DNA of 64,000 nucleotides from Cyanidioschyzon merolae (GCA_000091205.1 AP006490.2), one strand, 5' to 3'. Counted from the first letter of the stretch, positions 23,023-64,000 are shown. Numbers and translations: made by a program. The notes: generated by a model from the sequence alone, not told the origin.

Positions 23023-24204
23023 GCATGACACCACATGATCGCTGCAGGTCTCTAGATGAGGGCAGTACCGACCCACGTCGACGTCGTCGTGTTGGTAGAA
23101 AAAAAAGCCATGCGAAGAGAATGATGCGCTGATGAATGCGCTCCCAGCAAGAATGCATACTGCCGGGAGGCGTTTTGCGCTACGTTGGACGCCTACGAAA
23201 GGGGCGAGAGCGGCGGCCCTGGCAGTGAACCGTTGGCGCTGCTTCGGCGCTGTTGGATGAGGTGCTTTGAACCAATCCAAGCGCTTTCCAAGTCGGTCAG
23301 AGATGACGGCGACAACAGAATTGAATAGAATTGAGAGGTACTCGTGTCTACCCCGGTTGTCGTTCTGGTGCTGGCGGCAGGCAATATCGGTTTCAGCCGT
23401 AAACGCTTCGCTGCATTCCTGGTCGAGCAGCAGCAGACTCGCGTCGAGCTGATCTACGAGGTCGTTTCTGCCGCTCCAGACACAGACACACACACACACA
23501 GAGCCATATGCGCTGTGACTTTTCCCTGTCCAAGCTTTTGTTCTGCGTTCTTCGAGACAGTTATGGGCCAAATAGCTCCTGATGCTCTGTTGCAGTTCCT
23601 GTCGACGCCATTGTCGAGCATCCTTTGCCGCAGGTCAGGACGAGGATCGCTCGTCCTCAGAGTGAATCCGACGGCCGGTGGCGCCGCTCGTTGTGCCCAC
23701 TCGACCCTTCCCGTAGAGGTCGTTGCCACCGATGAGCACCAAGTCTGAAGCACCGGCGCCACGCACCGCCGGCGTTCGGCTGCGAGTGCTAGGTTTTCGC
23801 TCCCTCTCGGGTTTGTACACGAACCAGTAGAAAACTGCGCCCGCAATCGACCAAGCAAGCAGGTTCCTGCTAAGCGGAAGCTGAAACCCCATGGCCACGT
23901 CCAGCACGTTTACCAAACAAACTCTAGTTCTATTCAGGGACGCCTTTTTTCCTCGACAAAGCGAACGAGGTACCGCGACCAAACCCAGTTAGCCAGCGTA
24001 CGCTATCGCGTCGCTTGGTCGCTGCGTGAACCGCACGAAACCTGCTGCTCCTGTGGAAGTGTACTCGACTCGGACGAAAACTGACTGCCAGTGTCACGAG
24101 AACCCTGCGCGAATTATTTTCATGGACAAAACGTTTCCTTAGGCCAGCGATCTCCGATTATGCGCTTTTCCTTTCTTTTTGTGTTTTTTCTCAGTGCACG
24201 GTGA

Positions 24205-24400
24205 AGTATCCATCAAACCCCTACCTCCAATTTACATTTCCTATACTTCATCTCGGATATTCTGGTCATCTCACAAGTCCTATCGTGTGCCGAGCCTGCC
24301 GAAAGAGACCGCAATGGCGCGTGTAGCATCGGTGCGGTCGCTGCACGGAGACAGGACGGCGTTGCCGTACCACACAGAGGGCGTCGACTTGAGGCGTGGT
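24205..24400 (+). repeat. about 200-bp dispersed repeat R2, copy b
   Basis: see 19385-19590. Confidence 0.5.
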
Positions 24401-26189: not shown

Positions 26190-28950
26190 TTGCATTGCGC
26201 TCGGTGAGCACGCCTGGGAGATCCGGCAGGCATGAGACACGACGCACATGTTGCCGTTGAAGGGGAACGTGATCCTGATCTCTAGCATGTAGATCTAATG
26301 TAAAAGTTGTAATTTCTTTAACTTCATAGCCAAGTACAGTTTTTCAGTTCATTTTTGTTTCAAACCTCAAGTAAAAATATTCAATTGATTTTTAGCAGTA
26401 TATAATAGAAGCGTTCAAAGAGCGTCCTTTTTCACAAAACAAAAAAGGAAAGTCATGAAAAAGCAAGTTCACGATTCTAGAGGCCCAGGGTCGCCGGCTG
26501 CCAGAAAAAAACAAAAAACAGTGCCGAGTCCAGAAGAAAAGGAAGAGAAGAAGGACCGAAAGGGGAGGTCGTACGTCGAAGGCGGCAAGATAGACGGCTG
26601 TACGACGAGATGGTGGTGAAAACCTTTCTTCTTGGACATATCAAGGATCCCTACAGAGAAAAGTTGCGAGACGCTATCAAAAAACGTGTCGACTCATACT
26701 CCAAGAGTATTGTCAAGGCGTCGTCAGGACTGATGCATTTGGCGAGGGAGATGTATCGCGACGTGACGGACATGGAAACGGTCGAGATTCCAGACGAGTT
26801 CTTCGACAAGACCTTTATTCGTCAGCTGATGCTTGGTACAGAGGAAACGCGGAAGGAAAATGAGCGGGTTCACGCTCTTCACGAAAACTTCGCGGAATTC
26901 CGCTTCGAGAGTAATCGATACAGAGGTGATCGGGATATTTAGACATACGGAGCGAAAACGCACATCACGAGTCTGAAGTACCATTTGACAGTGAACCTCG
27001 AACGTTTCATGATACGCGCCGTGGTTGCACTCTACCCGGGCATCTCTCGCAAAGGAATATGGGCGATTATCAATGGCATCACGAAAGATCGTAAGCATGA
27101 AGATGAGATCGAATGCGTCGACAAGCAGGCGTCAAACGAGGGCACGAATGAGGATTCTGTAATCCGTGCGGCTAAACAAGAGCATCGTGCGGTACTGGGG
27201 CTGGCGAATCCAACAGACAAGATATCGGAGTTGAAAAAAGAAAGATATTATCGCCTCGTCCTGCTCTATTTCGTGTTTCTGGACCGAGAGCTCGAACGCA
27301 AAGCAGAGATGAAGCTGAGCGAAGAGATAAATGAAGAGTGGGAGAGACGGAAGGCTGTCCTAATGGGGAAGCGCTTCAACGTGGTTCCAATGTCAAATAT
27401 CAAGTCACATTTTGTGACGATCGACTCCAGAGTCCTTTATGGCATCATGAAGGAGATCAGTCCGGAGTTCGATGTTAGCAGGGAGGAGTTCACCAGCGGA
27501 AACCGGCAGACATGCTGGAAGAGTATCTTCGATTTCAAACGTCTCAAAGTCAGCAAACGAAAGGTATTCACTGGGATGATCGAGACCGATGGAGTAGCCT
27601 TGTGTGTACACTATCGGCGATTGAAGAAAGATCGTCCAGTTCCGCCCTCGGCTGCGCCTGTGACGAAGGATGCAGAAAACAAAGAGGAAGATCCTGCGAC
27701 GCAGGAGGTGGAGGATAACGACATTGTCGTTGACGTGACGAAGGATGAAGATGAGAAGGTGACGGATCCTGCGACACAGGAGGTGCAAGATAACGACCAT
27801 GTCGTTGATGCGGCGAAGCATGAAGATGAGAAGGAGGAGGATACCGCGACGCAGAAAGTGCAGGATAACGACTTTGTCGTTGACGTGGCGCAGCATGAAG
27901 ATGAGAAGGAGGCGGATCCTGCGGTGCAGAAAGTGCAAGATAACGGCTTTGTTGCTGGCGCGGACCCCGGGAATACGAATATCATCACCATCGCAGCACC
28001 GAGGCGTGCGGAAGATGGTACTGACGGTTCCTTGCGTCAGAAAGACTTGCGTCTTTTGAGGTTCTCGAGAGCAAGATACTATCGAGAATCGGGAATCATG
28101 AATGCGAGGAAGAAAATTCCTGCATGGAATGCAGGAATGAAGGATCACCTGGAAGCTTTGAGCGAGGTGACGAGCCGAGGAGCAGACTTTCAAGCTTTTC
28201 GGAAATTCATGGAAGTTCGCATTGCGCGTTGGCATGCACTGTGGGAGGAGTATACCAAGCCTCTGTGGGCTCGTCTGCGAATGAGTCTATACGGCGGGAG
28301 GCAGCGCGCGCTCGCGAACTTTTTCAATGAGTTGAGCGCACTCAAAGAGGATGAGAGTCAGAGGCTCGTAGTAGCATACGGAGCAGGGCGCTGGAAGACC
28401 CAAAAAGGGACTACGCCAGCTCCAACGACAAGAACTTACAAGGAGTGTGCAAGGCGTTTTGTTACGATACCTGTACATGAGTTTCGAACGTCCTATACAC
28501 ACCATGAACTGGGGTGTACACTTCAGAGGGTCGAGATGGAAAAGTGCCAACGGGGTCCTGAGGAAATAGGAAAGCACGGAGAGGTGACTGAGCAGCAAAT
28601 GGAAAGGAGGGCGAAAGTGCGAGGGCTACTTGCATTAGCAAATACAACCACTGATGGCAAGGAACGTATGGAGTTTGTGAATCGTGACCTTAATGCCGCT
28701 ATCAATATAAGGTGATGTGCGGTGCTCGAGAGCAGATCTCCAGAGTCGACAAAAGAAAACGTTATTGGCCAGCCTCTAAAAGTTGAACTATATGAGAAAC
28801 AATTGGAAGCAGTGGCAGGTGGCCGCTCCAAAAAGACTGGCAGCCATCAGCACGTCAGTTGGAGATGTCTAGCCTAGGGCGCGGTTGCCGCCACTACTGT
28901 ACCACAGGCAGCAACGTTTTTCTTTTGAAAGACGTTTGTTTCCAGGGGTA
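26190..28950 (+). mobile_element. Fanzor/TnpB-like (IS605 OrfB-type) element, copy A, about 2.75 kb
   Basis: Left end defined by alignment with copy D ('GCATYGCGCTCGGTGAGC...ATGAGACACGACGC...'), right end by shared '...GCAGCAACGTTTTTCTTTTGAAAG...'; AT-rich 5' leader; single nuclease ORF; lower GC than flanks. Confidence 0.6.
26610..28715 (+). pseudogene. Fanzor/TnpB-like RuvC nuclease gene, copy A (one in-frame stop at about 26943, N-terminal ATG lost)
   Basis: RuvC-I '[16 protein letters not shown]'; 'QRLVVAYGAGRWK'; degenerate Zn finger 'CARRFVTIPVHEFRTSYTHHELGCTLQ...EKCQ'; RuvC-III 'ERMEFVNRDLNAAINIR'; four about 23-aa acidic tandem repeats before RuvC-I. Confidence 0.6.
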
Positions 28951-29146: not shown

Positions 29147-31003
29147 ATGCTCGTGAAGGCTCCGCTTCCGACTGCTGAGGAGCTGCCGCAGGCCAAGGGC
29201 GCAGCGCACACGGTTGGGAGCAGCACGCCCACCGATGTGCAGGATACAGACCGTGCACTGGACCTGGAGAACCTGAACCTGGACTCCAACACGGAAGTGT
29301 CTCTGATAGCCGCGGACTTGCCCCCAGAAAGCGACGAGGGTAACACGGAGTACAAGCGGCAGCTGGTGCAGCCGTCACCCCAACGTTTCGCAGAGCTGGT
29401 GACACAACTCAAGTACCGCATGGCAGCGGGGCACGGGGAAGCTATGTACCAGCTAGGGTACGACGATGACGGACGCGCACGTGGTGTTCCAGAGGACGTT
29501 TTGGAGGCCTCAATTGAGACCGTGGAACGCATGGCTGCAGAGCTCCGAGCAGACGCCACCGTGTGGCGACGGGCTCGCGGACGCGACGGCTGGGTCGCAC
29601 AGCTGCTCATTCGAGCGCGACCGCGAAGCTGCGAAGAGTTTACGGATACTCGTATTTGTGTATCTGGCAATGTGGACGCGGGCAAGTCCTCTCTTCTCGG
29701 TGTATTGTGCGGAACCGGCCAACTCGATAACGGACGAGGTCTGGCACGAGCGCAGGTCCTGACACATAAACACGAGCTGGAGAGCGGGCGCACCTCGGCG
29801 ATTAGCATGCAGCTCATGGGATTCGACAGCGCCGGTCATGTGGTGAACTACACGAACGTTACCACGAATCGCCAGCTATCCTGGGCTGAGATCGTCACAA
29901 ATTCATCCAAACTAATCACGTTTTGTGATCTCGCCGGGCACGAAAAGTACCTCAAAACGACAATGTTCGGCCTAACGGCACATGCACCAGACTATTGTAT
30001 GATGGTCGTTGCCTTGAATCAAGGCGTGCTGCGAATGACCCAGGAACACTTTGCTATAGCACTTGCGCTCAAGATTCCAGTTTTTGTTGTTTTCTCCAAG
30101 AGTGACCTGGCACCTGCCAACGTTGCCGAGCATACCATCAGCGTCATGACGCGTATGCTCAAGTCGAGCGGTGCTCGCAAAATCCCCGTCCTGGTGAACT
30201 CCCTGGATGAGGTGAGCATCTGCGCGCGAAATATCCCGAACGACCGCATGGTACCGATGTTTGTGGTCAGCAATGTTACCGGAGCCGGACTCGATCTACT
30301 GCGAGCGTTTCTGAACCTGTTGCCATGGCGTCACGACTGGAACGAGCGGAAGAAGAGCGCTTTTGCCGAGTTCACCGTCGATGATCACTTCAGCGTACCA
30401 GGAGTTGGCACAGTTGTTTCGGGCGTGTGCCTGCGCGGTGTTCTCCAGCAGGGACAGAGCGTTTTTCTGGGACCCGATCGACATGGTCATTTCGCGCGCA
30501 TTGCGATCAAGTCCATCCACTACAAAAGGGTCCCTGTGCAGCGACTATATGCCGGTCAGTCGGGATCGTTGGCGCTCAAGAAAATTCGCCGTGAGCGTGT
30601 TCGCAAAGGCATGGTGGTGCTGAGCACCGCTGGCTTCTCCAACGGAGCCAAGTCGGGGTCGTCACCGGCAGCGTCCGGAAACGGGAATACGCCGACGACG
30701 CCCGTATCTGTCATCGAGTTCGAAGCGGATGTTGCGCTCATGTACCACAGCACGAGCGTCCGGGCGGGCTACCAACCGATCGTTCACTGCAGTACGATCC
30801 GGCAGGCCGCCCAGGTGACCTGGATGGATCGCGACGTGGTGCGCATGGGTGAGCGTGCACGCGCTCAGTTTCGCTTCCTCTACCGCCCTGAATGGCTCCG
30901 GGTCGGTGATCGTTTCTGTTTTCGTGAAGGAAGGACCAAAGGTATTGGTCATGTGACGCGCCTTGTGGAGTGCTGGACTCGTGACCTCATCACGATAAAT
31001 TGA
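29147..31003 (+). CDS. GTPBP1-family translational GTPase
   Basis: 'DEGNTEYKRQL' N-terminal signature of GTPBP1/2; G1 'GNVDAGKSSLLG', G3 'DLAGHEKY', G4 'SKSD'; beta-barrel domains 2/3. Confidence 0.8.
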   Translation: MLVKAPLPTAEELPQAKGAAHTVGSSTPTDVQDTDRALDLENLNLDSNTEVSLIAADLPPESDEGNTEYKRQLVQPSPQRFAELVTQLKYRMAAGHGEAMYQLGYDDDGRARGVPEDVLEASIETVERMAAELRADATVWRRARGRDGWVAQLLIRARPRSCEEFTDTRICVSGNVDAGKSSLLGVLCGTGQLDNGRGLARAQVLTHKHELESGRTSAISMQLMGFDSAGHVVNYTNVTTNRQLSWAEIVTNSSKLITFCDLAGHEKYLKTTMFGLTAHAPDYCMMVVALNQGVLRMTQEHFAIALALKIPVFVVFSKSDLAPANVAEHTISVMTRMLKSSGARKIPVLVNSLDEVSICARNIPNDRMVPMFVVSNVTGAGLDLLRAFLNLLPWRHDWNERKKSAFAEFTVDDHFSVPGVGTVVSGVCLRGVLQQGQSVFLGPDRHGHFARIAIKSIHYKRVPVQRLYAGQSGSLALKKIRRERVRKGMVVLSTAGFSNGAKSGSSPAASGNGNTPTTPVSVIEFEADVALMYHSTSVRAGYQPIVHCSTIRQAAQVTWMDRDVVRMGERARAQFRFLYRPEWLRVGDRFCFREGRTKGIGHVTRLVECWTRDLITIN

Positions 31004-31448
31004 GATGGAGTTGCGAAGCGGGCTGCAGCACATTTTGAGCAGCGCTCCAGAGAAGCTACGCTGGCGGTGGCACGCTTACCACGAATGCAGCGCAGAACGG
31101 TAATTGATGCGGGAAGCACGACGCTGTGAAGCTTTGTGTTGCATGATGCGGCATGTATCCGGGGCTTTGGTTGTGAGGAAAATGCGGGTTCAGGCGCTCT
31201 TGAGGCGTTGACAGTGCAAAGCATGTTCATTCGAGGTACATTGTCCGTGCGATATGGTTGCGGGCTCGCACATCTGGAGGAGGACTCTACGGGACTCGAG
31301 CTATCGGTGATGCAAGACCCGGGGGTACGAAAGCTAGCTGGCTAGCTAGCTGGCTGAGCGCCGAGGCCCCCTGCAGGACAACCTGGTGCATATTTGTGCA
31401 AGTCCTCGCAAATCGCTCGACAAGACATGCGGCCTCGTGTCTGGAACT

Positions 31449-32236
31449 GCACGCGTATCAGATGCCGCGGGAATACCAGACCGCTGGCTCTATTCCTGCT
31501 TTGCGATCTTTTCGGAGCCTGTTCAGACTTATTGTCTCTATTTTCAAATTTAAGCGATAAGGGCTTACGGATTCAGATGCAGTTCTAGGATGCTGTGTCG
31601 TCGTTTCGGAGACGTTCGTTCGAGTCTCTCTGCCACTGCAACTCGTTACGTCAGTGGAATCAAGATGCTACGCGGCATTCCGGAATGTGCGTTCGTAAAA
31701 TAACCGACAGCATGATGCCGTGCATGTGAGCAAGCTTCCGTGCTTCTTGTTGCTCCATGAAACACCGCCATGAACTCGTTCACATGGGTCATCGCAGCGA
31801 TAACTTCCAGCAGGGCGTGCGTCGACGTTTTGCATGAAGCGACCAGAGACGCATCGAAGTTTCGTGACGTGGTATCCAGCGTGGATTCCCATTCCTCTAC
31901 CAGTTCTATCATGGGCAACGTCGAGTTTCACAAATCCTCGGTCGAATTGAATGGAGCGTGCTTGCGCGTGCAGCTGGCACAGTGCTCGCCGAACAGATCG
32001 CCCAGAGGCGTCCCGTGATCACGGGGTACTCCAGCGGGCGCGGCAACGGAGCGGGGGCATCCACGGAATCCTTCCGTGCTCGTCGAGGGCATGGATCGAC
32101 TGTTAGCACAGGCGTTCATGTGTCACAGGGCGGTGTTCAGAAGAGGAGATGCGGCGAACGCGTGAGAACACCAGACCCCAGTCAAGCGCTGCGGATGCAT
32201 ATGGCGCACTGAGGCCGTCTACAACGAGAAATACAT
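31449..32236 (+). repeat. about 790-bp dispersed repeat R1, copy 1
   Basis: Near-identical (a handful of mismatches) to 48079-48856, same orientation, offset 16630 bp; ORF track shows identical short ORFs in both copies. Confidence 0.8.
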
Positions 32237-44495: not shown

Positions 44496-45482
44496 GTGGT
44501 CGTTTTTCTGCGGCAGTGAACACGTTGCCTAGTCTTCCGGAAAGTCTGAAGCCAACTGGAAAACGCTGCGTTGCTGCACTACTGCAGCGAGTCCTGTTTG
44601 AGAGCACGGGCCTGTGCTGGGTGTTGTTGTGGCTGCGCAAGGTGTCAGTGCCGGGTGTTGTTGTGTGATGCTTTCCGCGAAGAGGCGATGCAGAGCGCTG
44701 TAACTTGGGCTATTATGAGTCCAGAACCAGGGTCGTCACGCTAGAGCTTTCTTTGGAACAAGTCAGTTCCAAGATTGTACAGTATGATGTGCGGAACAGC
44801 GCTGCTGCGCGCGTTGTAACCTGTTCAACTTCTTTTCCAGAAACGCAGTGTTGAACGTGCGTGAAGAGTTTTGGGCTTCGATGAGCCTTGCTTGCGCTGC
44901 ACTAGTTCTGGTGCTACGATTGAAACCGGACCGGGTACAATACTCTATGCCAAAGGCGGCTCGGAACCGAGACTTGACCACAGCATAGCGAGCCCTCGAG
45001 GCCTTTTGCGGGTACGCGCTTGCCGCTTCTTGCGGACCGGGCCAACGCAACGCTTGCACGTGCAAACGTACCGTTGTGTTTCGTGACGTGACGTCGTCGC
45101 AGGAAAGAAACTCGAATCCCAGACTCGGGTGCGTACCGTTTCGGCGATATGGATACGAGGGCGTGTAGTCTTTCAACCCGAGTGCGATTCACCCCCAGGT
45201 GCATGATTTCAAATGCTTTTTCGCGGTTTATAGCAGATGCGTTCCAAGTGCGTGCATTTTGAAGAAATAATTATCTAATGAAAAGGCATGGAGATGGAAG
45301 GCGGGGGATCCTAGAGGGCCGGTGTCATCGGGGGCCGGAAAAGTAACGAAAAGAAATCCACTTCTCGCCGGCCAACGAGCGACAAAGAGCAAGGAATGAA
45401 GAAGAAGAAAGAGAAGCGGCGCGAGAGACGGGAATGTATTGGTACACAGGGCACGAGGTCCCGGCATCCTTGTAATGGTGCG

Positions 45483-45700
45483 TTCCATCAGCGGCAAGAA
45501 ACGGATGGAGTTCGTGAACCAAGACTTCAACGCAGTCATCAAAATCAGACGGTGTGCAGTGCTGAAGAGAAGAGACTCGAGGAACTGACGCAATCCAATT
45601 TTGCGGGGTTACCTTTCAGAGTCGAAGTGTACAACGAGAAACTCAAGCCGATAGCAGCCGGCCGGTCAAACAAGACTGGGAGGCGTCTGCGGGTGCGTAT
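45483..45700 (+). mobile_element. 3'-terminal fragment of Fanzor/TnpB-like element
   Basis: Encodes '...GKKRMEFVNQDFNAVIKIRRCAVL...RVEVYNEKLKPIAAGRSNKTGRRLRV' matching the C-terminus and downstream conserved region ('GCCGGTC.AAA..GGGAGGCGTCTGC') of copies A-D. Confidence 0.5.
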
Positions 45701-46327
45701 GTGTATATACCCTCCATGGTCGTGAAACGTTGTTCGTTTTAATGGTCACATATAGCATGCGACTCAACGGAATGCTGCGACGCAGAAACGACCTACCGAC
45801 CTCAGTATCCATCATGCGTACTCTGCAAGCGTGGTCGGAACAGGTTCGTGGCGGGCCAGTCATGGACCATTGCATACGCTGCCACGAAGCTGAACGGGAT
45901 ACTGGACCCTTGTCGATGTATTCGACGACGACGTACGACTTGAAACTGTGATGATATTTGGTTTTACAAATGCCGCTGGTACATCCATGCCTGCGCACTT
46001 GAGCTTGTCTCTGCAATGTTCCCCGAATACCATCGCGCGCTTTAGATCATCAATACCTGTATTGCCAGAGATAAGCATATCGTATAAATTCGGATCATGT
46101 CTTCACATGGTTTGCATTGATTTCGATATCAACAGCTCGCACAGCGTGCCCCAGGCTGAGGCGTCGAGCGTCGCCTCGAGGTCGCGAGACGCTGCCAAGA
46201 GGTGCCGATGTGCCTTTGCGCAGCGTCTTCGCAGCGGGCCCAGCGCGTACCATACGTAACCGGCAACGCTGCACATGAATCCATGCCCTGCCACAGACCG
46301 ATGAACACATGACCTGTTTAACGAATC

Positions 46328-47908: not shown

Positions 47909-48078
47909 CAGTTCTAGTTGGCTACAAAGGATATTACGGCTTAACGGAATCCATGGTTAACGCGGCTATCATGGTGTTCCGGAAGGTCGGCTCCGATCCA
48001 GAGCCGCAACCCGCGATCTGGACGGCGCGATTTGATCCGTTTTGTTCGCCGATCGTTGCGCGATCGTCAACGGTATCT

Positions 48079-48856
48079 GCACGCGTTTCAGATGCCGCGG
48101 GAATACCAGACCGCTGGCTCTATTCCGGCTTTGCGATCTTTTCGGAGCCTGTTCAGACTTATTGTCTCTATTTTCAAATTTAAGCGATAAGGGCTTACGG
48201 ATTCAGATGCAGTTCTAGGATGCTGTGTCGTCGTTTCGGAGACGTTCGTTCGAGTCTCTCTGCCACTGCAACTCGTTACGTCAGTGGAATCAAGATGCTA
48301 CGCGGCATTCCGGAATGTGCGTTCGTAAAATAACCGACAGCATGATGCCGTGCATGTGAGCAAGCTTCCGTGCTTCTTGTTGCTCCATGAAACACCGCCA
48401 TGAACTCGTTCACATGGGTCATCGCAGCGATAACTTCCAGCAGGGCGTGCGTCGACGTTTTGCATGAAGCGACCAGAGACGCATCGAAGTTTCGTGACGT
48501 GGTATCCAGCGTGGATTCCCATTCCTCTACCAGTTCTATCATGGGCAACGTCGAGTTTCACAAATCCTCGGTCGAATTGAATGGAGCGTGCTTGCGCGTG
48601 CAGCTGGCACAGTGCTCGCCGAACAGATCGCCCAGAGGCGTCCCGTGATCACGGGGTACTCCAGCGGGCGCGGCAACGGAGCGGGGGCATCCACGGAATC
48701 CTTCCGTGCCCGTCGAGGGCATGGATCGACTGTTAGCACAGGCGTTCATGTGTCACAGGGCGGTGTTCAGAAGAGGAGATGCGGCGAACGCGTGATGACA
48801 CCAGACCCCAGTCAAGCGCTGCGGATGCATATGGCGCACTGAGGCCGTCTACAACG
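48079..48856 (+). repeat. about 790-bp dispersed repeat R1, copy 2
   Basis: see 31449-32236. Confidence 0.8.
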
Positions 48857-49842
48857 GAGATGAATACAGCAGGCGTGGCGTGGATCGCAACTTGCTGCTT
48901 TGCACGAAATGCGTGAAAAATCACCCAAAGCAGCGGAATCGGGATTTGGACCATGCCATCGACACGCTGCGACTGTTGACATCGGAGCTGGAGGGTGGGG
49001 AGAGATCGGTGTATTTAAAGGCAGGGGAAAAGAGAAACAGAAAACAGGGGTCTCAGAACAGGCGCACAAAGGCTGATATTGATGGCCTCGCGAAGACGAG
49101 ACACAACCTTAGTCGTACACAACCGAGTCAGAGGGTACGACCCTTTCTATTTCATCCTGCTATGTACATAGAACAGTGTCGATTCTTCAGCACCAGACCT
49201 GAATAGATTCGATTTAGCGTTGAGCGCGTCTAGTGACGGGCAACGCCTACCGTCCACGACACCAAGATTGCGTTTTACGATCTGGGACAGAGGTCCTGCG
49301 GACTAGACACGTCCGCAGGGCTCGTGCTGTGTGCGCCACCACGGCAGCGACTGCAGAGGCGGTGCAGGCGCAGTCCCAATGCAGCGCATCTCAGTCAGGC
49401 TGACCCCGCTGGAACGAGGGAGAGTGGCGTCTCCATCGTCGCCGGGATTTCTCCAGCATACCGCTCCGTGCAGCCAGCACGAGATCTGCATGCACCAACG
49501 GTTTGGTCCTAGGAAGAAGTCGAATTCTGCCCTTGAATGGTATCACTCACTCCAGAATCCGAAGGCTGCGATGTTTCGCAAAGCCGCAGTATCACCAGGG
49601 TATGACCGCGACGACGCGTAGCGTAGCGCAGCGAGCGCGCACGGCAGGCTCCTGTTCAAGGAGGCTGCAGGGTCCAGCGTACATATTCTCCTCAGAAACA
49701 CTGCTCTACGGTTGAAGTAAGCAGAAACGTATTTGCAGCGATAAAATCTCTTCCAAATTCACCAGCAGCGTCTACGTACCTCAAAGAATCCGGTTCAAAA
49801 TATCCATCTCATTGCTTGATAACATTCAAACGAAACTTTTTG

Positions 49843-54821: not shown

Positions 54822-55353
54822 AACATTCATGTGATATCGATTGCATAAATTGGATATAAAGGCTTGTTGGCGTCCGCTCCCACGCGCAGTTGGACAATCA
54901 TGACTTTAGCGTATATTTATGTATTAAACGGACACACTTCTCTGCATTCCGTTTTGCGGCTCTCCGCATGGGTGTCGATCACGGCTAGGCGAGCCCATTC
55001 CGAGCAACTAGGCGTCAATCGCTGGCGCTGCGACCCACGGACTGATAGGACGCGCTTTAGACAGAATGGCCCATTGTCTTGCTCCTAGCGCGCTGCGTGC
55101 CGCGTCTCCATACGCGTCGGACTCGTCGCGGCAACGTTGCGAAGACCCGTCGCCTCCGCGGCTGTTCGTTTTGTACACGGCAGAGCGGCGACTCGGTCCT
55201 GGACCATGCGCGTGATGCCTGTCGTCGCCCCGCAAAACGGCTGTCTCTCTAAGCGCTACACGTTTGCGCATTGTTTGCGTGTCGGCATGACGCGCAACTG
55301 GCAGAACAGCGCCGTATAGCACTCGCACAGACGCGAGCGTGGACAGAAAAGCA

Positions 55354-55422
55354 GGTACAGGCATAGGTACAGGCATAGGTACAGGCATAGGTACAGGCAT
55401 AGGTACAGGCATAGGTACAGGT
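55354..55422. repeat. 12-bp tandem repeat (GGTACAGGCATA) x about 5.7
   Basis: Direct observation; right palindrome arm has only about 1.5 units (59098-59122, inverted). Confidence 0.9.
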
Positions 55423-55620
55423 GTGGGCTCCAGGTCGGCCCCGGAGAAGGAAGCGTGTGCAAGTACCATGGCGGCTAAAAATCGTTCGCAAAATATCACT
55501 TTATAGGCATCGAGGCTACGCATCAACGCACGGACGATCACTCACTCGCTTTCCATAGGTCGTATCCTTCCTCCATTGCATCCGGTCTTCCTTACATCAA
55601 GGCTTTCACCGCTCTCCGCT

Positions 55621-55914
55621 TTAGTTCCCCTGGAACTTTTCCTTGGTGGCATCTGCTGCGTGCTCTATTCCTTTCTTCGCAGACTGACCGGTTTCCTTCA
55701 GGTGATCCACTGCATCACCCGCCTTGTCTTGAGCTTTCTCCTGTGCGGACTTTTGCCCGGTGAGATCACGGAACTTGTCAGAGATCGTCTCCTTCGCCGA
55801 TGAAAACGCACCAGTGACAGACTCTTTCGCAGAATCCAAAGCGCCACCCGCTTTCTTCTCCGTATCTTTGAGAGCCGACTGTGCTGAGCTTGTATCTTGA
55901 GCTCCGGAAGACAT
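55621..55914 (-). CDS. small hydrophilic LEA/CsbD-like protein (97 aa)
   Basis: 'MSSGAQDTSSAQSALKDTEKKAGGALDSAKESVTGAFSSAKETISDKFRDLTGQKSAQEKAQDKAGDAVDHLKETGQSAKKGIEHAADATKEKFQGN'; paralog at 58606-58899. Confidence 0.5.
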   Translation of the reverse strand: MSSGAQDTSSAQSALKDTEKKAGGALDSAKESVTGAFSSAKETISDKFRDLTGQKSAQEKAQDKAGDAVDHLKETGQSAKKGIEHAADATKEKFQGN

Positions 55915-56019
55915 ATCACAATTTATAATGCTTTCGTAAACTCGAAAAATGCATATGCAAATGAGGTACCACGGCGCGCGCGGTGGCCGCACAGCCACAA
56001 ACACAGGAGATTTTACCGC

Positions 56020-57366
56020 AACAGGACCCGCACGCACCGCAGTTTGAAAGTCGAACGACGGCGGTGTACAGTAGCGGCGAACGATGCGCCCTAGACGACG
56101 TCTCCAACTGAGGTGCAGACGCCTCCCGGCCTTTTTGGACCGGCCACCCGCTACTGCTTCCAACTTTTTCTCAAATAATTCCACTTTGGGAGGTTGTCCA
56201 ATAACGTTCTCTCGTGGCAACTCTGGAGGTCTGCTCTCGAGCACCGCACATGTCGTTATCTTGATAGCGGCGTTAAAGTCTCGGTTCACAAACTCCATAC
56301 GTTCCGTGCCATCATTGGTTGTACTTACTAATGCAAGCAGTCCCCGAACTTTCGCCCTCCTTTCCATTTGCGCTTCCGTCAGCGGTCCGTACTTTGCTAT
56401 TCCCTCAGGGCTGCTCCGACACTTTTCTATCTCGACACTTTGAAGTGTACACCCCAGTTCATGGTGTGTATACGATGTTCGGAACTCATCTATCGATATC
56501 GTAACAAAACGTCGTGCACACTCTATGTACGTTCTCGTCGTTAGAGCTGGTGTACACCTTTTTTGGGTCTTCCAGCGCCCTGATCCGTACGCTACTACCA
56601 GCCTTTGGCTCTCGTCCTCCTTCAGGGCGTTCAACTCATTGAAAAAGTTCGCGAGCACGCGCTGCCTCCCACCGTATAGACTCATTCGCAGACGAGCCCA
56701 CCGGGGCTTTGTATACTCCTCCCGTAGCGCCTCCCGATGAGGAACACGAACTTCCATGACTTTCCGAGAAGCTTGAAAGTGTGCTCCGCGGCCCGTCACC
56801 TCGCTCAAAGCTTCCAGGTGATCCTTCATTCCTGCATCCCATGCAGGAATTTTCTTCCTCGCATTCATGACTCCCGATTCTCGATAGTATCTTGCTCTCG
56901 GGAACCTCAAAAGACGCATGTCTTTCTGACGCAAGGAACCGTCAGTACTATCTTCCGCACGCTACGCTGCGCGATGGTTATGATACTCGTATTCTCAGGG
57001 TCCGCGCCAACGACAAAGCCGTTATCTTGCACTTTCTGCACCGCAGGATCCGCCTCCTTCTCATCTTCATGCTGCACCACGTCAACGACAAAGTCGTTAT
57101 CCTGCACTTTCTGCGTCGCGGTACCCGCCTCCTTCTCATCTTCTTGCTGCGCCACGTCAACGACAAAGTAGTTATCCTGCACTTCCTGTGTGGCAGGATC
57201 CGCCTCTTTGTTTTCTGCATCCTTCGTCACGGGCGGAGCCGAGGGCGGAACTGGCCGATCTGTCTTCAACCGCCGATAGTGTACACACAAGGCTACTCCA
57301 TCGGTTTCGATCATCCCAGTGAACAACTTTTGTTTGCTGACTTTGAGCCGTTCGAAACTGAAGATA
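56020..57366 (-). pseudogene. Fanzor/TnpB-like nuclease element, copy B (5'-truncated; 3' boundary approximate)
   Basis: Encodes from '[22 protein letters not shown]' through RuvC-I 'VVGADPENTSIITIA', 'LVVAYGSGRWK', Zn finger and 'FVNRDFNAAIKI'; no stop before downstream LEA-like ORF. Confidence 0.55.
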
Positions 57367-58570
57367 TTCTTCGTTGGGATGATCGAAACCGATGGAGCAG
57401 CCTTGTGTGTACACTATCGGCGGTTTCAGGCGGATCATCCAGCTCCGTCTTCGACTTCGCCGGGACGGAGCATGAAGCGAAGAAAGAGGCGGATCGTGCC
57501 ACGCAGAAAGTGCAGGATAAAGAATTTCCCATTGACGCTACGAAGCATGAAGATGAGATGGAGGCGGATACCGCGACGCAGGAGATGCAGGATAACGACT
57601 TTGTCGTTGGCGCGGACCCTTGGAACACGAATATCATTGGCATGGCTGTACCCAAGCGTGCGGAAGATGGTATCAACGACAGCCCATTTCAGAGAGACAT
57701 GCGTCTGTTGAGATTCTCGAGAGCAAGATACTACCTAGAATTGGGAATCATGAATGCAAGGAAGGAAATTGAGGCATGGAATGCGGAAGTGAAAGAGCAT
57801 CAGGAAGCTTTGAGCGAGGTGACAAGCCGAGGAGCGGGCTTTCAAGCTTTTCTGAAATTCATGGAAGTTCGCATTGCGCACTGGGATGCATTGTGGGAGG
57901 AGTATACAAAGCCCCGGTGGGCTCGTTTGCAAATGAATCTATACGTTGGGAAGCAGCGGGCCTTCGCGAGTTTTTTCAATCAGTTGAGTGCCCTGAAGGA
58001 GGATGAAAATCAGAGGCTCGTAGTAGCGTATAGAGCAGGGCGCTGGGCGCCCAAGAAAGGCACTACGCCAGCTCCAACGACGGGGGCGTACAAGGAGTGC
58101 GCACGGCGTTTCGTCGCGATACCGATAGATGAGTTCCGTTCGTCCTATACACTCCATGAACTGGGGTGTACACTTCAGAGAGTGGAGATGGAAAAGTGCC
58201 AACGGAGCCCTGAGGAAATAGCAAAGTACGGACCTCTGACGGAAGAGCAAATGGAAAGGAGGGCGAAACTTCGGGGGCTACTTGCATTAGTAAGTACAAC
58301 CAGTGATGGCAAGGAACGTATGGAGTTTTTAAACCGAGACTTTAACGTCGCTATCAATTTAAGGAGATGTGCGGTGCTGGAGACGAGACCTCCAGAGCTG
58401 ACAAGAGAGAACTTTGTTGGACAACCGCCCAAAGTAGAACTATATGAGAAAATATGGAATCAGTAGTAGGTGGCCGGTCCAAAAAGGCTGGGAGGCGTCT
58501 GCACGTCAGTGGGAGATGTTTCGTCTAGGGCGCGTGCTTCGCCACTATTGTACACCGTTGGCGTCGTTCG
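57366..58570 (+). pseudogene. Fanzor/TnpB-like nuclease element, copy C (5'-truncated; 3' boundary approximate)
   Basis: '[17 protein letters not shown]' ... 'VVGADPWNTNIIGMA' ... 'LVVAYRAGRWA' ... 'EFLNRDFNVAINLR'; stop at 58466. Confidence 0.55.
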
Positions 58571-58605
58571 AGTGCGAAAGGTGTTCCCTTAGCGTCGCAG
58601 TGACA

Positions 58606-58899
58606 ATGTCTTCTGGGTCGCAGGATACCTCTTCTGGTCAATCAGTTCTCAAAGATGCCGAGGCGAAGGTAGGCAGTGCATGGGAATCCACGAAGGAGTC
58701 AGTTTCTGAAGCGTTCACTTCGGCCAAGGAGACTATCTCTGACAAGTATCGTGATCTCACCGGCCAAAAGTCCGCGCAGGAGAAAGCCCAAGACAAGGCG
58801 AGCGAGGCGGTGGATCACCTAAAGGAAACCGGTCAGTCCGCGAAGGAGAGTTTGCAGCACGCTGCAGATGCAGCCTCGGAAAAGTTAAAGGACGGCTAA
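58606..58899 (+). CDS. small hydrophilic LEA/CsbD-like protein (97 aa)
   Basis: ATG at 58606; about 80% identical to 55621-55914 product. Confidence 0.5.
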   Translation: MSSGSQDTSSGQSVLKDAEAKVGSAWESTKESVSEAFTSAKETISDKYRDLTGQKSAQEKAQDKASEAVDHLKETGQSAKESLQHAADAASEKLKDG

Positions 58900-59417
58900 C
58901 GGAGAGAGCGTAGAAAGACTTGAGTGAAGGATGCACGGAAGTAAAACAGGAAGGATACGACCTATGGACAGCGAGTGAGTGATCGTCCGTGCGTTGATGC
59001 GTAGCCTCGATGCCTATAAAGTGATGTTTTGCGAACGATTTTTAGCCGCCATGGTACTTGCACACGCGTCCCGCTCCGGGGCCGACCCGCAGCCCACACC
59101 TGTACCTATGCCTGTACCTGCTTTCCTGTCCACGCCCGCGTCTGTGTGAGTGCTATACGGCGCTGTTCTGCCAGTTGCGCGTCATGCCGACACCCAAACA
59201 ATGCGCAAACGTATAGCGCTTATAGAGAGATAGTTGTTCCGCGGGGCGAGCGCCCGCAATCGCAGTCGAGGGCACAATCGACTCGATCGCTGCCGCACGG
59301 GGCGCGACGCATCGCACGCTGTGGTGCAGCGCAGCGCGTACCGGCCTCTGGAAGCAAGTTGTGCGCAGCAGCGATCTGAGGCCTTTATCCATCGGTGCAG
59401 CGTCTCGCGCGGTGCAC

Positions 59418-62120
59418 GCATCGCGCTCGGTGAGCGTACCCGGGAGATCAGGCAGATATGAGACACGACGCGCATGTCGCCGCTGAAGGGAAACGCGATC
59501 CTGACCATTCGTTGACGTGTTGTTCTAACGTAAAACTTGTATTTGCATTGGAATCGTAACAGAATATATTGTTTCATCTCAGTCGTGTTTCAACCTTCAA
59601 GTAAAAATACTCGAGCGCTTTTTCGCGGTTTAGAGCAGAGACGTTAATAGTGCGTTCTAAATCAAAAAAAAAAAACTAAAAAAGGAAAGTTCTGGACAGC
59701 GAAGTGGAGGACCCTGGAGGGTCAGTATCGCTGGCAGGCGAGAAAAAAGGAGCAAAAGAGCCAAACATAGAAGAACGAGACAAGACGAAGAAGCAGACGG
59801 GGGAGGTCCTACGTCAATGGCTGCAAGAAAGACGACAGTACGACGAGATGGAGGTGAAAACCTGTCTTCTCGGCTATAGCAAGGATTCGTAGAAGAAAAA
59901 ATTGCGAGAGTCCATCAGAAACTGTGACGAGTCGGACTCCATGAGTTTTCGTAAGACTTCTTTAGGAATGATGCATCTAGCGAGGGAGATGTATCGCGAC
60001 GTGACGCACATGGAAACAGTCGATGTTCCAGAAAAATTTTGCAACAGGAACTTTATTCTTCACCTGATGCTTGGTACAGGGGAAACATCGAGGAGAAATG
60101 AGCGGGTTCACGCCCTCCACGAAAACTTCGCGGAATTCCGCTTCGAGGGTACTCGGTACAGAGGTGACTCGAATATTTACATATACGGGGCGATGAAGTA
60201 CCTCACGAATCTGAAGAACCATTTGACAGTGAACCTTGAACGTTTCATGAGACGCTCGGTGTTTGCACTCTACCGGGGCATCTCTCGCACAGGAATACGG
60301 GCGATTACCAATGGCATCACCAACGAGCACCAGAATGAAGATGAAGTCGAATTTGTCGACAAGAAGGCGTCAAACGAGCGCACGAATGAAGCCTCTGTAA
60401 TCCGTGCGGTTATACAAGAGCGCCGTGCAATCTTGGGGTTGGCGGATCCAATAGACAAGATACCAGAGTTGAAAAAAAATATAAGGAAAGACACTATCGC
60501 CTCATCCTGCGATATTTCGTGTTTTTGCACCGAGAGCCCGAACGCAGTGCGCAGATGAAGCCGAGTGAGGAAAAAATATGAAGAGTGGGAGAGACGGAAA
60601 GCTTTCCTAATGGGGAAGCGCTTCAACGTCGTTCCAATGTGCAGCATCAAGTCACATTTTGTGACTGTCGACCCAACGTACGTTACAGCAAATTGAAGGA
60701 GATCTGTCCGGAGTTCAATGTAAGGAAGACAGAGTTCGCCGGTGAAAACCGGGAGACGTACTGGAAGAACATCTTCAATTTCAAACGGCTCAAAGTCAGC
60801 AAACAAAAGTTGTTCACTGGGATGATCGAAACCGATGGAGTAGCCTTGTGTGTACACTATCGGCGGTTGAAGACAGATCGGCCAGTTCCGCCCTCGGCTC
60901 CGCCCGTGACGAAGGATGCAGAAAACAAAGAGGCGGATCCTGCCACACAGGAAGTGCAGGATAACGACCTTGTCTTGACGTGGAGCAGCATGAAGATGAG
61001 AAGGAGGCGGATACCGCGACGCAGAAAGTGCAGGATAACGACTTTGTCGTTGACGTGGTGCAGCATGAAGATGAGAAGGAGGCGGATCCTGCGGTGCAGA
61101 AAGTGCAAGATAACGGCTTTGTTGCTGGCGCGGACCCCGGGAATACGAATATCATCACCATCGCAGCACCGAGGCGTGCGGAAGATGGTACTGACGGTTC
61201 CTTGCGTCAGAAAGACATGGGTCTTTTGAGGTTCCGGAGAGCAAGATACTATCGAGAATCGGGAGTCATGAATGCGAGGAAGAAAATTCCTGCATGGGAT
61301 GCAGGAATGAAGGATCACCTGGAAGCTTTGAGCGAGGTGACGGGCCGCGGAGCACACTTTCAAGCTTCTCGGAAAGTCATGGAAGTTCGTGTTCCTCATC
61401 GGGAGGCGCTACGGGAGGAGTATACAAAGCCCCGGTGGGCTCGTCTGCGAATGAGTCTATACGGTGGGAGGCAGCGCGTGCTCGCGAACTTTTTCAATGA
61501 GTTGAACGCCCTGAAGGAGGACGAGAGCCAAAGGCTGGTAGTAGCGTACGGATCAGGGCGCTGGAAGACCCAAAAAAGGTGTACACCAGCTCTAACGACG
61601 AGAACGTACATAGAGTGTGCACGACGTTTTGTTACGATATCGATAGATGAGTTCCGAACATCGTATACACACCATGAACTGGGGTGTACACTTCAAAGTG
61701 TCGAGATAGAAAAGTGCCAGAGCAGCCCTGAGGGAATAGCAAAGTACGGACCGCTGACGGAAGCGCAAATGGAAAGGAGGGCGAAAGTTCGGGGACTGCT
61801 TGCATTAGTAAGTACAACCAATGATGGCACGGAACGTATGGAGTTTGTGAACCGAGACTTTAACGCCGCTATCAAGATAACGACATGTGCGGTGCTCGAG
61901 AGCAGACCTCCAGAGTTGCCACGAGAGAACGTTATTGGACAACCTCCCAAAGTGGAGTTATTTGAGAAAAAGTTGGAGGCAGTAGCGGGTGGCCGGTCCA
62001 AAAAGGCCGGGAGGCGTCTGCACCTCAGTTGGAGACGTCGTCTAGGGCGCATCGTTCGCCGCTACTGAACCACTGGCGGCAGCGTTTTTCTTTTGAAAAG
62101 CGTTTGCTGCTCGGGGTGCT
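59418..62120 (+). mobile_element. Fanzor/TnpB-like element, copy D, about 2.7 kb
   Basis: Both ends align with copy A; right end 12 bp upstream of the CysRS ATG. Confidence 0.6.
59704..62068 (+). pseudogene. Fanzor/TnpB-like RuvC nuclease gene, copy D (at least 3 frameshifts/stops; GTG at 59704 in ORF track)
   Basis: Fragments 59704-59892, 59902-60558, 60585-61229, 60980-62068 are co-linear with copy A; retains '[16 protein letters not shown]', 'LVVAYGSGRWK', 'FVNRDFNAAIKI'; 1-nt deletion near 60975 and homopolymer indel near 60480. Confidence 0.6.
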
Positions 62121-62132
62121 AGCGTTCCTGAA

Positions 62133-64000
62133 ATGGAACCGAAACCTACTGTGTTCAACTCTTTAACTCGTGAAAAGGAGCAGATTACCCTTTCATCGGA
62201 TCGCAGCTTTCTGAGCTGGTATATCTGCGGACCAACGGTCTACGATGCCGCACACGTGGGGCACGCGCGGAACTACGTCTCTTTCGACATCGTTCGACGC
62301 TTGCTCGTTGATTATTTCGGCATACCGGTACTTTATCAAATGAACATAACGGATGTTGACGATAAAATCATTCAAAAGTCGTTTGATTCTGGGGAGAGCT
62401 TCACAAACATAGCGCGTCGGTTCGAGGCGGACTTTTTCGACGACCTGGAAGCGCTGCACTGCCTGCCACCGGACGTTGTTACCCGAGTGACCGAGTACAT
62501 TCCTGAGATAACGGCATATGTTCGCAAACTTATGGAACGTGGATATGCCTACGAGGCGGCCTCTGGTTCCGTCTACTTTGACGTGGAAGCGTTTGAGCGA
62601 AGTGGACGACACCGTTTTGGGAAGCTCAGGCCTGCCGCTGCCGCAGCAGCAACGAGCGTTGAGACCCGACCGCATGCGGGTGCAAACGGGGTCGATCCTC
62701 CCAGCCTTGAGCAGCTCTCTGTCCAGGAAGAAAAACGGAACCCTCGAGACGCTGCTCTGTGGAAAGCCTCCAAGTCAGCAATGGAGCCAGGTTGGGAAAG
62801 TAACGGTCTAGCGCGGGGGCGTCCCGGCTGGCACATTGAATGTGCGGTCATGGCGTCGCTGGTCAGCTGTGCGGGTACGACACACTTGGATATTCACACC
62901 GGTGGTATCGATCTCGAGTTTCCGCATCATGACAATGAGATCGCGGAAGCGGAAGCGTACTTCGAGACCGACCTGTGGTCACGCTACTTTCTCCATTCGG
63001 GGCATTTGAATATTGAGGGCCTCAAAATGTCCAAATCGCTGAAAAATTTCATTACCATTCGTGAAGTTCTCCGTCGATGGAATTGGCGCCAACTACGTGT
63101 TCTGTTTCTCATGCACCATTACCAGACGACCATGAACTATTCTGAAGAGAGCATGACACATGCGGCAGCAGTCGAAAGGACCATCCAGGAATTTATGCGT
63201 TCTACAGAGGCAGAGCTGCGGGCGCACTTGCCCGAGGAACGCCATCGGAAGCCCACAAAAGTCGATCTAGAGCTCTTATACCAGGTACTGCCTGCAACTG
63301 AGGCCACTGTTCGTGCCCACCTGAGCGACAACTTCAACACACAGGACGCGTTGCAGGACTTGCTTACACTGATTCGCACGGTGAATCTCCATCGGCATGA
63401 AACACCGGGGGGCGTTGGATACGCCACTCTACATCACATACGCAGCTCCGTCGGTCGTATACTATCTTGTTTCGGTCTTGACTACGACGTCAAGGATGAT
63501 GTCGCGTCCCAGGGCGGAGCTGCACTGGCCTCCGTCGAACCGTGGATTCAGGGGGCCGTGCGCCTCCGCGACCAGATTCGCGAAGTTGTACTTTCGGCGG
63601 ATGCAAATACTGACGCGAACGCCCTCAAAGAAAGTATTCTTGCGGTGTGCGACGAGTTTCGGGATGCGGTATTACCGCCTCTGGGGGTACGGCTCGAGGA
63701 TCGGACGTATCCGAAACCAGCAATCTGGAAATACGATGATCCTGCGGCTATTCAGGCGGACATCGAGCAGCGGCGGCAAGCCGAAGCTGCGCGAGCAGCG
63801 GAGAAAGAGGCCCGTCGTAGAGAAGCGGAACAGCGGCTCTTGAAAGAGCTCGAACAAGGTCGCACGCATCCTAGTCAAATGTTCCTGGACCCGAGTCTCT
63901 ATTCCCAATGGCGAGAGGACGGCATTCCGACGCATGACGCCGAGGGTCGCGAACTCGAAAAATCTCGCGTGAAGCGACTCTTGAAAGAGCAACAGCGTCA
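62133..64000 (+). CDS. CARS: cysteine--tRNA ligase (CysRS), 3'-partial, runs off window
   Basis: My own translation from ATG 62133: 'SWYICGPTVYDAAHVGHARNYVSFDIVRRLL' (HIGH-type) and 'LKMSKSLKNF' (KMSKS); ORF absent from track because no stop inside window. Confidence 0.9.
   Translation, partial: MEPKPTVFNSLTREKEQITLSSDRSFLSWYICGPTVYDAAHVGHARNYVSFDIVRRLLVDYFGIPVLYQMNITDVDDKIIQKSFDSGESFTNIARRFEADFFDDLEALHCLPPDVVTRVTEYIPEITAYVRKLMERGYAYEAASGSVYFDVEAFERSGRHRFGKLRPAAAAAATSVETRPHAGANGVDPPSLEQLSVQEEKRNPRDAALWKASKSAMEPGWESNGLARGRPGWHIECAVMASLVSCAGTTHLDIHTGGIDLEFPHHDNEIAEAEAYFETDLWSRYFLHSGHLNIEGLKMSKSLKNFITIREVLRRWNWRQLRVLFLMHHYQTTMNYSEESMTHAAAVERTIQEFMRSTEAELRAHLPEERHRKPTKVDLELLYQVLPATEATVRAHLSDNFNTQDALQDLLTLIRTVNLHRHETPGGVGYATLHHIRSSVGRILSCFGLDYDVKDDVASQGGAALASVEPWIQGAVRLRDQIREVVLSADANTDANALKESILAVCDEFRDAVLPPLGVRLEDRTYPKPAIWKYDDPAAIQADIEQRRQAEAARAAEKEARRREAEQRLLKELEQGRTHPSQMFLDPSLYSQWREDGIPTHDAEGRELEKSRVKRLLKEQQR

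Follow-up and report, generated by a model that had tools for sequence, protein, structure and literature searches.

Copies of a Fanzor1 element upstream of co-oriented genes

The window analysed here, a 64,000-nucleotide stretch of genomic DNA (AP006490.2), is from Cyanidioschyzon merolae 10D, and the GTPBP1-like protein encoded at 29147-31003 is 100% identical to a C. merolae 10D protein. Self-alignment revealed that the window holds five copies of one repeat, which is identified by sequence comparison as the known transposon family CMe-1A, a Fanzor1 family encoding a TnpB-like, RNA-guided nuclease. A previous sequence-only reading of this DNA had rightly described the repeats as elements, but had not named their Fanzor1 class. 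Four of the copies (A to D) end shortly upstream of a host gene: copy A precedes a gene for a GTPBP1-like GTPase, copies B and C precede LEA-like genes, and copy D precedes the gene for cysteinyl-tRNA synthetase (CysRS). To set the limits of the copies, the self-alignment was combined with 62 distinct right ends of related genomes.

The right end of copy D lies directly before the CysRS ATG (62133), as the sequence-only reading had recognized, with a measured gap of ~17 nt in place of its ~12 bp. The right end of copy C (~58587) is separated by ~18 nt from the LEA-like ATG at 58606, and that of the minus-strand copy B (~56031) by ~116 nt from the LEA-like ATG at 55914; both thus end shortly before LEA-like genes, as proposed, but outside the suggested range of 40-100 bp. 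For copy A (right end at ~28943-28949), the predicted distance of ~200 bp to the GTPBP1-like ATG at 29147 agrees with the measured ~200 nt, and the claim that element and downstream gene share one strand was confirmed for A, B, C and D. Two relatives share the CysRS start (MEP...NSLT), which makes it conserved in three species including C. merolae, and an in-frame TGA in the hairpin loop of copy D indicates that CysRS is not fused to the element. The gaps of only ~17-18 nt before a conserved ATG in D and C leave no room for an independent promoter, so that transcription of these genes must begin within the element, at its edge or farther upstream.

These four cases are each real but do not represent four separate events. 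Copies B and C, together with their LEA-like genes, are the opposing arms of an ancient inverted duplication (55225-59249, centre at ~57370; arms 78-83% identical), and therefore count as a single event. In addition, copy B (56066-57372, minus strand) is 98% identical to positions 60764-62070 of copy D over 1.3 kb, whereas the other pairs of copies share 78-87% identity. This identity ends exactly at a conserved ACTACTG(T/A)AC sequence (the anchor), beyond which B has a different variant of the terminal hairpin. Since B is nearly identical to D up to the anchor while keeping the other hairpin variant, the pattern looks like a recent gene conversion from D to B, which would have stopped at the end of homology. 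In the window alone, three of four independent events fit the placement pattern, which is not significant (p = 0.25).

Placement of related copies

The sequence-only reading had asked whether other copies are random in orientation and lie at unremarkable distances from the next gene. For this analysis, 80 loci from hot-spring metagenomes, the best-scoring of 310 related ones, were reduced to distinct flanks, giving 41 usable independent sites outside the window, and random intergenic insertion was simulated with the same open reading frame (ORF) heuristic as the null model. The pattern held at these sites. The next gene is on the same strand in 35 of them (85%, compared to 46% expected, p = 1.5e-7), and 25 have a same-strand ATG within ~100 nt of the right end (6.4% expected, p = 6e-20). 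The median distance from the anchor to the ATG is 112 nt, which corresponds to ~60 nt from the right end. The downstream ORFs are not paralogues of one another, and strong Pfam domains were found in 17 of the 19 ORFs tested, representing unrelated housekeeping families including Tim17, FtsZ, ATP synthase, M18 peptidase, TPT, Macro, Rpr2 and ABC transporter.

Random intergenic insertion falls far short of these values, which supports promoter-proximal placement. The median intergenic spacers are 340-520 nt, and the sequence-only reading had pointed to very short spacers in this genome; as an explanation of the pattern they were ruled out by the simulation, which yields 46% same-strand neighbours and 6% same-strand neighbours with an ATG within 100 nt. 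The proposal of that reading, an insertion preference for promoter-proximal sites or a right end that acts as a promoter or reads through into the gene, was supported as far as the placement is concerned, but sequence cannot separate the two causes.

Six of the 41 sites are exceptions in which the right end faces the 3' end of a gene 350-1100 nt away, and no tRNA genes were found downstream of these six. At four exception sites (L059, L065, L071 and the second copy of L041), a same-strand ORF of 88-99 aa starts 54-212 nt after the anchor, so that the true co-oriented fraction may exceed 35/41. The left end shows no proximity to genes: the nearest long ORF is at a median distance of ~900-1000 nt and is divergent in 15 of 22 cases (14 of 17 with a minimum ORF length of 300 aa). 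With a close co-oriented gene on the right and a distant, divergent neighbour on the left, the elements usually lie in divergent spacers, with the right end against one of the two genes. The bias is genuine, has a polarity and concerns the right end specifically, with relatively intact copies ending ~0-150 nt from a co-oriented start codon.

Empty orthologous sites

A comparison with empty orthologous sites, suggested by the sequence-only reading, was possible at the GTPBP1 and LEA/CysRS loci, where presence or absence of the element was scored in two relatives without it, a JGI metagenome genome and Cyanidiococcus yangmingshanensis. Both relatives keep the gene order around GTPBP1, with an upstream interval of 0.5-1.2 kb compared to 5.3 kb in the window, and no element sequence was detected at this site in either of them. 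At the second locus, both relatives have a single LEA gene (minus strand) that diverges from the neighbouring CysRS (plus strand) across 1.15-1.5 kb, and the 20 kb examined there contain no Fanzor sequence. The corresponding spacer of C. merolae received two elements, one with its right end toward LEA and the other with its right end toward CysRS. Intergenic DNA of C. merolae cannot be aligned with that of the relatives (coding parts alone align, at ~70-77%), and the exact junctions are unrecoverable.

Right-end structure and the putative omega-RNA

The interval 62068-62140 at the right end of copy D contains, in order, the end of the TGA of the decayed ORF (62066-62068), the terminal hairpin, the ~17-nt spacer and the CysRS ATG. 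The conserved block with the anchor is present in all copies (last nucleotide at 28902 in A, 62070 in D, 56066 on the minus strand in B and 58553 in C) and is followed by a long terminal hairpin, at the end of which homology between the copies stops. Likewise, the 62 distinct right ends share a common block with ACTACTGTAC at its end and, after it, a terminal hairpin in several sequence variants, such as GGCGTCGTTCGA-CTT-TCGAACGGCGTT, AACGTTTTTC-TTTT-GAAAGRCGTT, GGCGAGCACGCG-CTCGTG-CGCGTGCTCGCC and others. These variants are unlike in sequence, yet all of them pair. The 3' segment from the point where protein homology stops up to the hairpin is conserved like coding sequence, whereas the hairpin sequence is not, and the flank beyond the hairpin is unique to each site.

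Because MAFFT misaligns the variant hairpins, they were folded copy by copy, which revealed stems of up to 19-22 bp and pairing of the G/T-rich tail with bases 5' of the hairpin. On average, the plus strand of the hairpin folds with -21.2 kcal/mol and the minus strand with -15.3 kcal/mol. The plus strand is the more stable one in 40 of 47 copies, and G.U pairs contribute 174 of the 888 hairpin pairs (20%). The hairpin of copy D folds with -27.4 kcal/mol on the plus strand compared to -12.5 kcal/mol on the minus strand; that of copy A has a minimum free energy of -23.3 kcal/mol (z = -5.2) and only -15.6 kcal/mol on the minus strand.

The conserved 3' segment upstream of the hairpin is a putative omega-RNA scaffold (Table 1), and single-sequence folds showed a recurrent closing stem, GCAGTAGTGG/CCACTACTG, around smaller hairpins. 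RNAalifold analysis of 44 right ends gave weak, conservation-driven stems, and a scan of the whole window against Rfam produced no family at the gathering score. In the SpuFz1 system, the omega-RNA scaffold is located at the right end of the element, and the guide consists of the first 14-15 nt of the flank (Saito et al. 2023, PMC10432273). Since in characterised Fanzor1 systems the right end encodes the omega-RNA and the flank supplies its guide, transcription is expected to read through the right end, and by its place in the locus the spacer of copy D would correspond to the guide position.

Table 1. Coordinates of the element copies, right-end features and host genes in the window
Feature	Position	Strand	Description
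Copy A	26192-28947	+	Near full-length CMe-1A Fanzor1 element; ORF broken by frameshifts and a stop
Copy A ORF	26985-28715	+	Carries GADPG, EFRTS and NRDLNAAINI
Copy A terminal hairpin	28903-28947	+	Variant 2, AACGTTTTTC-TTTT-GAAAGACGTT with outer pairs
GTPBP1-like GTPase gene	29147-31003	+	~200 nt 3' of the copy A right end
Fifth copy	~45163-45751	+	Short, degenerate, internally deleted; promoter/N-terminal piece joined to C-terminal and right-end piece
LEA-like gene	55621-55914	-	97 aa; downstream of copy B
Copy B	56031-57372	-	5'-truncated; variant-1 hairpin after the anchor
Copy C	57367-58587	+	5'-truncated; head-to-head with B
LEA-like gene	58606-58899	+	97 aa; ~18 nt 3' of the copy C right end
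Copy D	59382-62116	+	Near full-length CMe-1A Fanzor1 element, ORF frameshifted; core left end at 59418
Putative omega-RNA scaffold	61979-62072	+	Conserved 3' segment overlapping the ORF end; closing stem GCAGTAGCGG/CCGCTACTG with internal hairpins between
Copy D terminal hairpin	62073-62115	+	~18-21 bp, many G.U pairs
Unique spacer, right end to CysRS ATG	62116-62132	+	Homology with other copies ends here
CysRS gene	62133-64000	+	Runs past the window end; start MEPKPTVFNSLTR

Identity of the element and its protein

The element has a core of 2.76 kb with one Fanzor1 ORF, and all copies in the window are pseudogenes. Single window ORFs showed no significant match in Pfam or PDB, and profiles were therefore needed for class assignment. 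A search of 1.84 billion representative proteins identified 2627 relatives of the repeat protein. A 15-sequence family profile matched the Spizellomyces Fanzor1 protein SpuFz1 (E = 6.6e-4), and a 28-sequence profile built from the relatives and searched against PDB chains matched PpFz1 (E = 5e-20), SpuFz1 (2.5e-11) and GtFz1 (2e-5), while the Pfam family Cas12f1-like_TNB was matched by five of the 28 members. The repeat ORF carries the motif set GADPG, DEFRTS and NRDxNAAINI, which was found in copies A, C and D as GADPG, (D/H)EFRTS and NRD(F/L)NAA. The RuvC catalytic residues of the Fanzor1 motif D-X-[TS][TS]-...-RD, here D484, E656 and D725 (numbering of P0001, an intact copy), are invariant in the 28 homologues.

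The consensus of 35 copies restores an intact ORF of 784 aa, and in its C-terminal half the third codon positions are less conserved than the first and second. The interval expected to hold the C4 zinc finger (from the TS to the RD motif) contains only HH...C...C in the consensus (EFRTSYTHHELGCTLQRVEMEKC) and lacks CxxC pairs; this may be a degenerate metal site. An AlphaFold model of P0001, built from a shallow alignment, reached a pLDDT of 35, which is too poor for a fold search. The ORFs also contain in-frame 75-nt tandem repeats (27644-27963; 57002-57231, minus strand; 57449-57646; 60905-61133), which encode acidic 25-aa units directly upstream of the RuvC-I motif GADPG. The number of units varies by copy, with ~2-4 in the window and more in the related locus L016.

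CMe-1A has been described as a family of ~150 copies of ~3 kb, ~80% identical to their consensus, without terminal inverted repeats (TIRs), with undetermined target site duplications (TSDs), and unclassified (Bao & Jurka 2013, PMC3627910). Its 5' 635 bp are common to a separate repeat, TE-N2_CMe (PMC3627910). The host organism, the length of ~3 kb, the single Fanzor1 ORF and the lack of TIRs and TSDs all agree, and the assignment to CMe-1A was made from this published description. An earlier genome study reported 253 copies of a novel, transcribed 3.2-kb interspersed repeat with a WSV486-like ORF, comprising 5% of the genome (Nozaki et al. 2007, PMC1955436). This repeat and CMe-1A are the same family. 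The published element and the element of the window share the organism, the length of ~3 kb, the single Fanzor1/WSV486-like ORF and the ~80% identity to consensus, and likewise the lack of TIRs and of recognisable TSDs and the presence of some coding-capable copies; judged by length, they may also have the left part in common with TE-N2_CMe.

The published accounts (PMC3627910, PMC1955436) do not include the start-proximal, co-oriented right end, the strand-specific terminal hairpin or the empty orthologous sites. The repeats were called "distributed randomly" (Nozaki et al. 2007, PMC1955436) and left unclassified, whereas here they are non-randomly placed and belong to Fanzor1. The placement bias thus contradicts the published random distribution. 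The element itself is known, but no report of its start-proximal, co-oriented placement or strand-specific terminal hairpin was found in the literature searched.

Left ends and other repeats

The left end of the core (GCATCGCGCTCGGTGAGCGC...) is fused, at a constant position, to a repeated module, which is one of several kinds and varies in extent. Three such modules recur in the related loci (90-690 nt, 70-1170 nt and ~700 nt), with examples in L067 (~5020-5660), L016 (~4546-5670) and L023 (~5000-5700). A module of ~640-690 nt is common to several related loci, whereas copy D has only ~36 nt of it, upstream of 59418, and copy A none; one left module has about the published length of TE-N2_CMe (635 bp), to which it is likened by length alone. 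The pattern resembles 5' truncation, or other repeats inserting repeatedly at one spot. The only hairpin at the left end is a short GCGCTC-GGT-GAGCGC.

Several other repeats were observed in the window. A repeat of ~290 nt is present at 19400-19589 and 24108-24400 (73% identical), and in many related loci it abuts the Fanzor left end in inverted orientation (L016, 5375-5678). The 1.3 kb upstream of copy A (~24900-26192) is also a repeat, with 86-89% identity in L006, L014, L039 and L041. A 792-nt direct repeat (31447-32235 and 48077-48868) has two copies 99% identical and 16.6 kb apart, each located in the spacer upstream of a plus-strand gene (an RPL5-like gene at 32710 and an ORF at 49843), and shows weak similarity to sequences in related loci.

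On the copy B side, one open frame of 437 aa (55621-56934, minus strand) runs from the remnant of the Fanzor C-terminus through the right end into the LEA-like gene, so that no stop separates element and gene in that frame. The LEA-like frame on the copy C side (58444-58899, plus strand) is likewise open back into the right end. The open frame joining element and LEA-like gene is probably coincidental. Another ORF on the inverted duplication (55008-55541, minus strand) encodes low-complexity (PMPV)n and has a counterpart at ~59029-59379 on the other arm; its coding status is doubtful.

Comparison with other transposons

The closest characterised systems are SpuFz1 and the other Fanzor1 OMEGA systems (PMC10432273; structures 8gkh, 9cf0 and 9cer), which have a homologous nuclease with the same RuvC D/E/D residues as CMe-1A. 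SpuFz1-type elements and CMe-1A also share a conserved non-coding 3' segment that overlaps or follows the ORF, and a unique flank at the position of the 14-15-nt guide. They differ at their termini, since Spu-1 has 33-bp TIRs and TA TSDs of the Tc/mariner type, whereas CMe-1A has neither and carries a long terminal hairpin instead. The C4 zinc finger of characterised Fanzor1 proteins is not recognisable in CMe-1A. No report of gene-proximal placement of Spu-1 was found in the literature searched.

TnpB elements of the IS200/IS605 type, and HUH (Rep) transposons more generally, resemble CMe-1A in lacking TIRs and TSDs, in their subterminal right-end hairpin and in having TnpB in the sense of the top strand. 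Their orientation-specific insertion is tied to single-stranded DNA (PMC10288648). In contrast to CMe-1A, which shows no conserved target, they use a fixed target tetranucleotide, and their orientation is tied to replication, whereas that of CMe-1A follows the transcription of the neighbouring gene. A canonical Helitron (5' TC, 3' CTRR, a hairpin 10-12 nt before the 3' end and an A|T target) was rejected, as the right ends close with G/T-rich hairpin arms, for example ...GGTG or ...GGGG, and the flanks show no A|T target.

Promoter-targeting transposons include Tf1 of fission yeast, P elements, Mutator and bat Helitrons, which integrate in a narrow zone at the 5' ends of genes, and TRE5-A of Dictyostelium inserts upstream of tRNA genes in a fixed orientation to its target. 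CMe-1A is similar to these elements in its insertion in a narrow zone at gene 5' ends in a compact genome, and to TRE5-A also in its fixed orientation. However, the integration of all these other elements is carried out by integrases, by DDE transposases or by target-primed reverse transcription and involves known tethering factors, whereas CMe-1A carries an RNA-guided nuclease as cargo and has protein-coding targets transcribed by RNA polymerase II (Pol II).

Origin of the placement bias

The explanation that we favour, about evenly poised between acceptance and doubt, combines orientation-specific, promoter-proximal integration with outward transcription across the right end, by which the host gene would remain expressed. 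Integration would be orientation-specific and aimed at the gene region proximal to the transcription start. The most economical route would be for the element to reach the 5' end of a transcribed gene in a strand-specific way, for example through the displaced non-template strand, which would suit the hairpin-ended architecture without TIRs and TSDs shared with the TnpB-carrying IS200/IS605-type elements. Transcription would have to cross the right end so that the omega-RNA gains its flank-derived guide, and the severed host promoter and 5' leader would be replaced by such outward transcription or by a start site on the border of the right end. With the host promoter replaced in this way, co-oriented insertions would be tolerated even before essential genes such as CysRS, FtsZ and Tim17, and the guide-equivalent of each copy would be the 5' leader of its host gene.

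A number of observations weigh against this explanation. No target motif or target-adjacent motif (TAM) was found at either end of the element, where there are no conserved flanking nucleotides, and the ends show no TIR or TSD. No transposase was identified for the element: no TnpA or Rep gene was seen in the window or the related loci, although no HUH/Rep-specific search was made there, and with a single ORF the element has no Y1/Y2 HUH transposase gene inside it. A hairpin of ~-25 kcal/mol in the 5' leader would hinder translation, which makes a start site upstream of the hairpin awkward. Covariation of the internal stems in the structure derived from copy D was not significant (0.141 versus 0.134, reached by 48 of 500 shuffles). 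The fifth copy in the window, which faces the 3' end of a minus-strand gene ~580 nt away, does not follow the placement pattern, and short degenerate derivatives at ~8 sites show no clear pattern. Finally, the 41 sites belong to metagenome-assembled genomes of relatives rather than to C. merolae 10D itself, in a sample biased to intact copies, and the gene models are ORF heuristics in which the next gene is an ORF of at least 120 aa.

The bias might also be produced by selection only, which we consider unlikely. Insertion would be random, and the surviving copies would be the co-oriented, start-proximal ones rescued by an outward-reading right end, with all others purged. The genome is compact (median spacers of 340-520 nt), the copies are old enough for ample selection (~80% identical to the consensus, PMC3627910), and an orientation bias would be expected if the right end alone can drive its neighbour. 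However, the least harmful insertions, those in convergent or remote positions, should then prevail, yet six of 41 face a 3' end and none of them is closer than 350 nt, and several of these six have the 88-99 aa same-strand ORF right after the right end. At the same time, the most disruptive zone (up to 100 nt from the ATG) is the commonest (25/41 against 6%). With the most disruptive positions commonest and the presumably harmless convergent spacers rare, an integration preference is favoured over selection alone.

An RNA-mediated origin appears improbable, although it would account for much of the architecture. A non-LTR reverse transcriptase would copy a host mRNA to its 5' end and switch to the 3' end of a Fanzor transcript, and the chimeric cDNA would enter the genome through homologous recombination with the host gene. 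Integration of DNA in C. merolae occurs mainly by homologous recombination. Such a route would explain the co-orientation, the distances from right end to ATG, which are like those of 5' untranslated regions, and the lack of TIRs and TSDs, because the right end would fall exactly at the transcription start and the left ends would be ragged. The left junctions are indeed heterogeneous, with modules of 90-690 nt and 70-1170 nt fused at a fixed point. The genome also has non-LTR retrotransposons, three of them with an intact reverse transcriptase ORF (PMC1955436). In contrast, the ~260 nt upstream of the element ATG include a TATA-like box, indicating that the mobile unit carries its own promoter, which would be absent from a cDNA of its own mRNA. 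Moreover, poly(A) remnants are absent, and most of the sampled copies are full length.

We give very little credence to a regulatory use by the host, suggested by analogy, in which Fanzor and an omega-RNA with the neighbour's 5' leader as guide would regulate that gene in cis or trans. The guide-equivalent flank is the 5' leader of the host gene, the family ORF has evolved under purifying selection (its third codon positions are the least conserved), and domesticated, TnpB-derived RNA-guided repressors of promoters are reported from bacteria (PMC10705468). However, the catalytic D/E/D residues are kept, the family, with its many copies, behaves like a mobile element, the copies of the window are all pseudogenes, and the occupied sites show no sign of a TAM beside the flank. 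Chance is hardly credible: local duplication and small numbers could make the window copies striking (B and C are one inverted duplication, B was apparently converted by D, and three of four independent events give p = 0.25), but the 41 further sites have unrelated downstream genes and depart from expectation in both orientation (p = 1.5e-7) and proximity (p = 6e-20).

Implications for Fanzor transposons and their host

Beyond the favoured combination of promoter-proximal integration and outward transcription, a more far-reaching and doubtful version can be formulated. Fanzor1 integration would be transcription-coupled and strand-specific at the starts of Pol II genes, the omega-RNA guides would be host 5' leaders, often of essential genes, and a sizeable set of genes would be expressed from Fanzor right ends. 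By extrapolation this set would be of the order of a few hundred host genes, provided that the sampled copies are typical of most of the 253 published ones. If this version is true, a guide on constrained essential sequence would make a homing drive that is hard to resist; for this algal group, a sexual cycle is now reported (PMC13353863).

The family comprises ~5% of the genome of a model alga, and the end that encodes the guide RNA in characterised Fanzors systematically abuts the starts of co-oriented genes. Many host genes, including the essential CysRS gene, are predicted to rely on transposon-derived 5' regions, and as C. merolae can be transformed by homologous recombination, deletion and reporter work is feasible. 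For the question of what Fanzor nucleases do for their transposons in eukaryotes, the placement described here gives a testable link between Fanzor, transcription and target choice.

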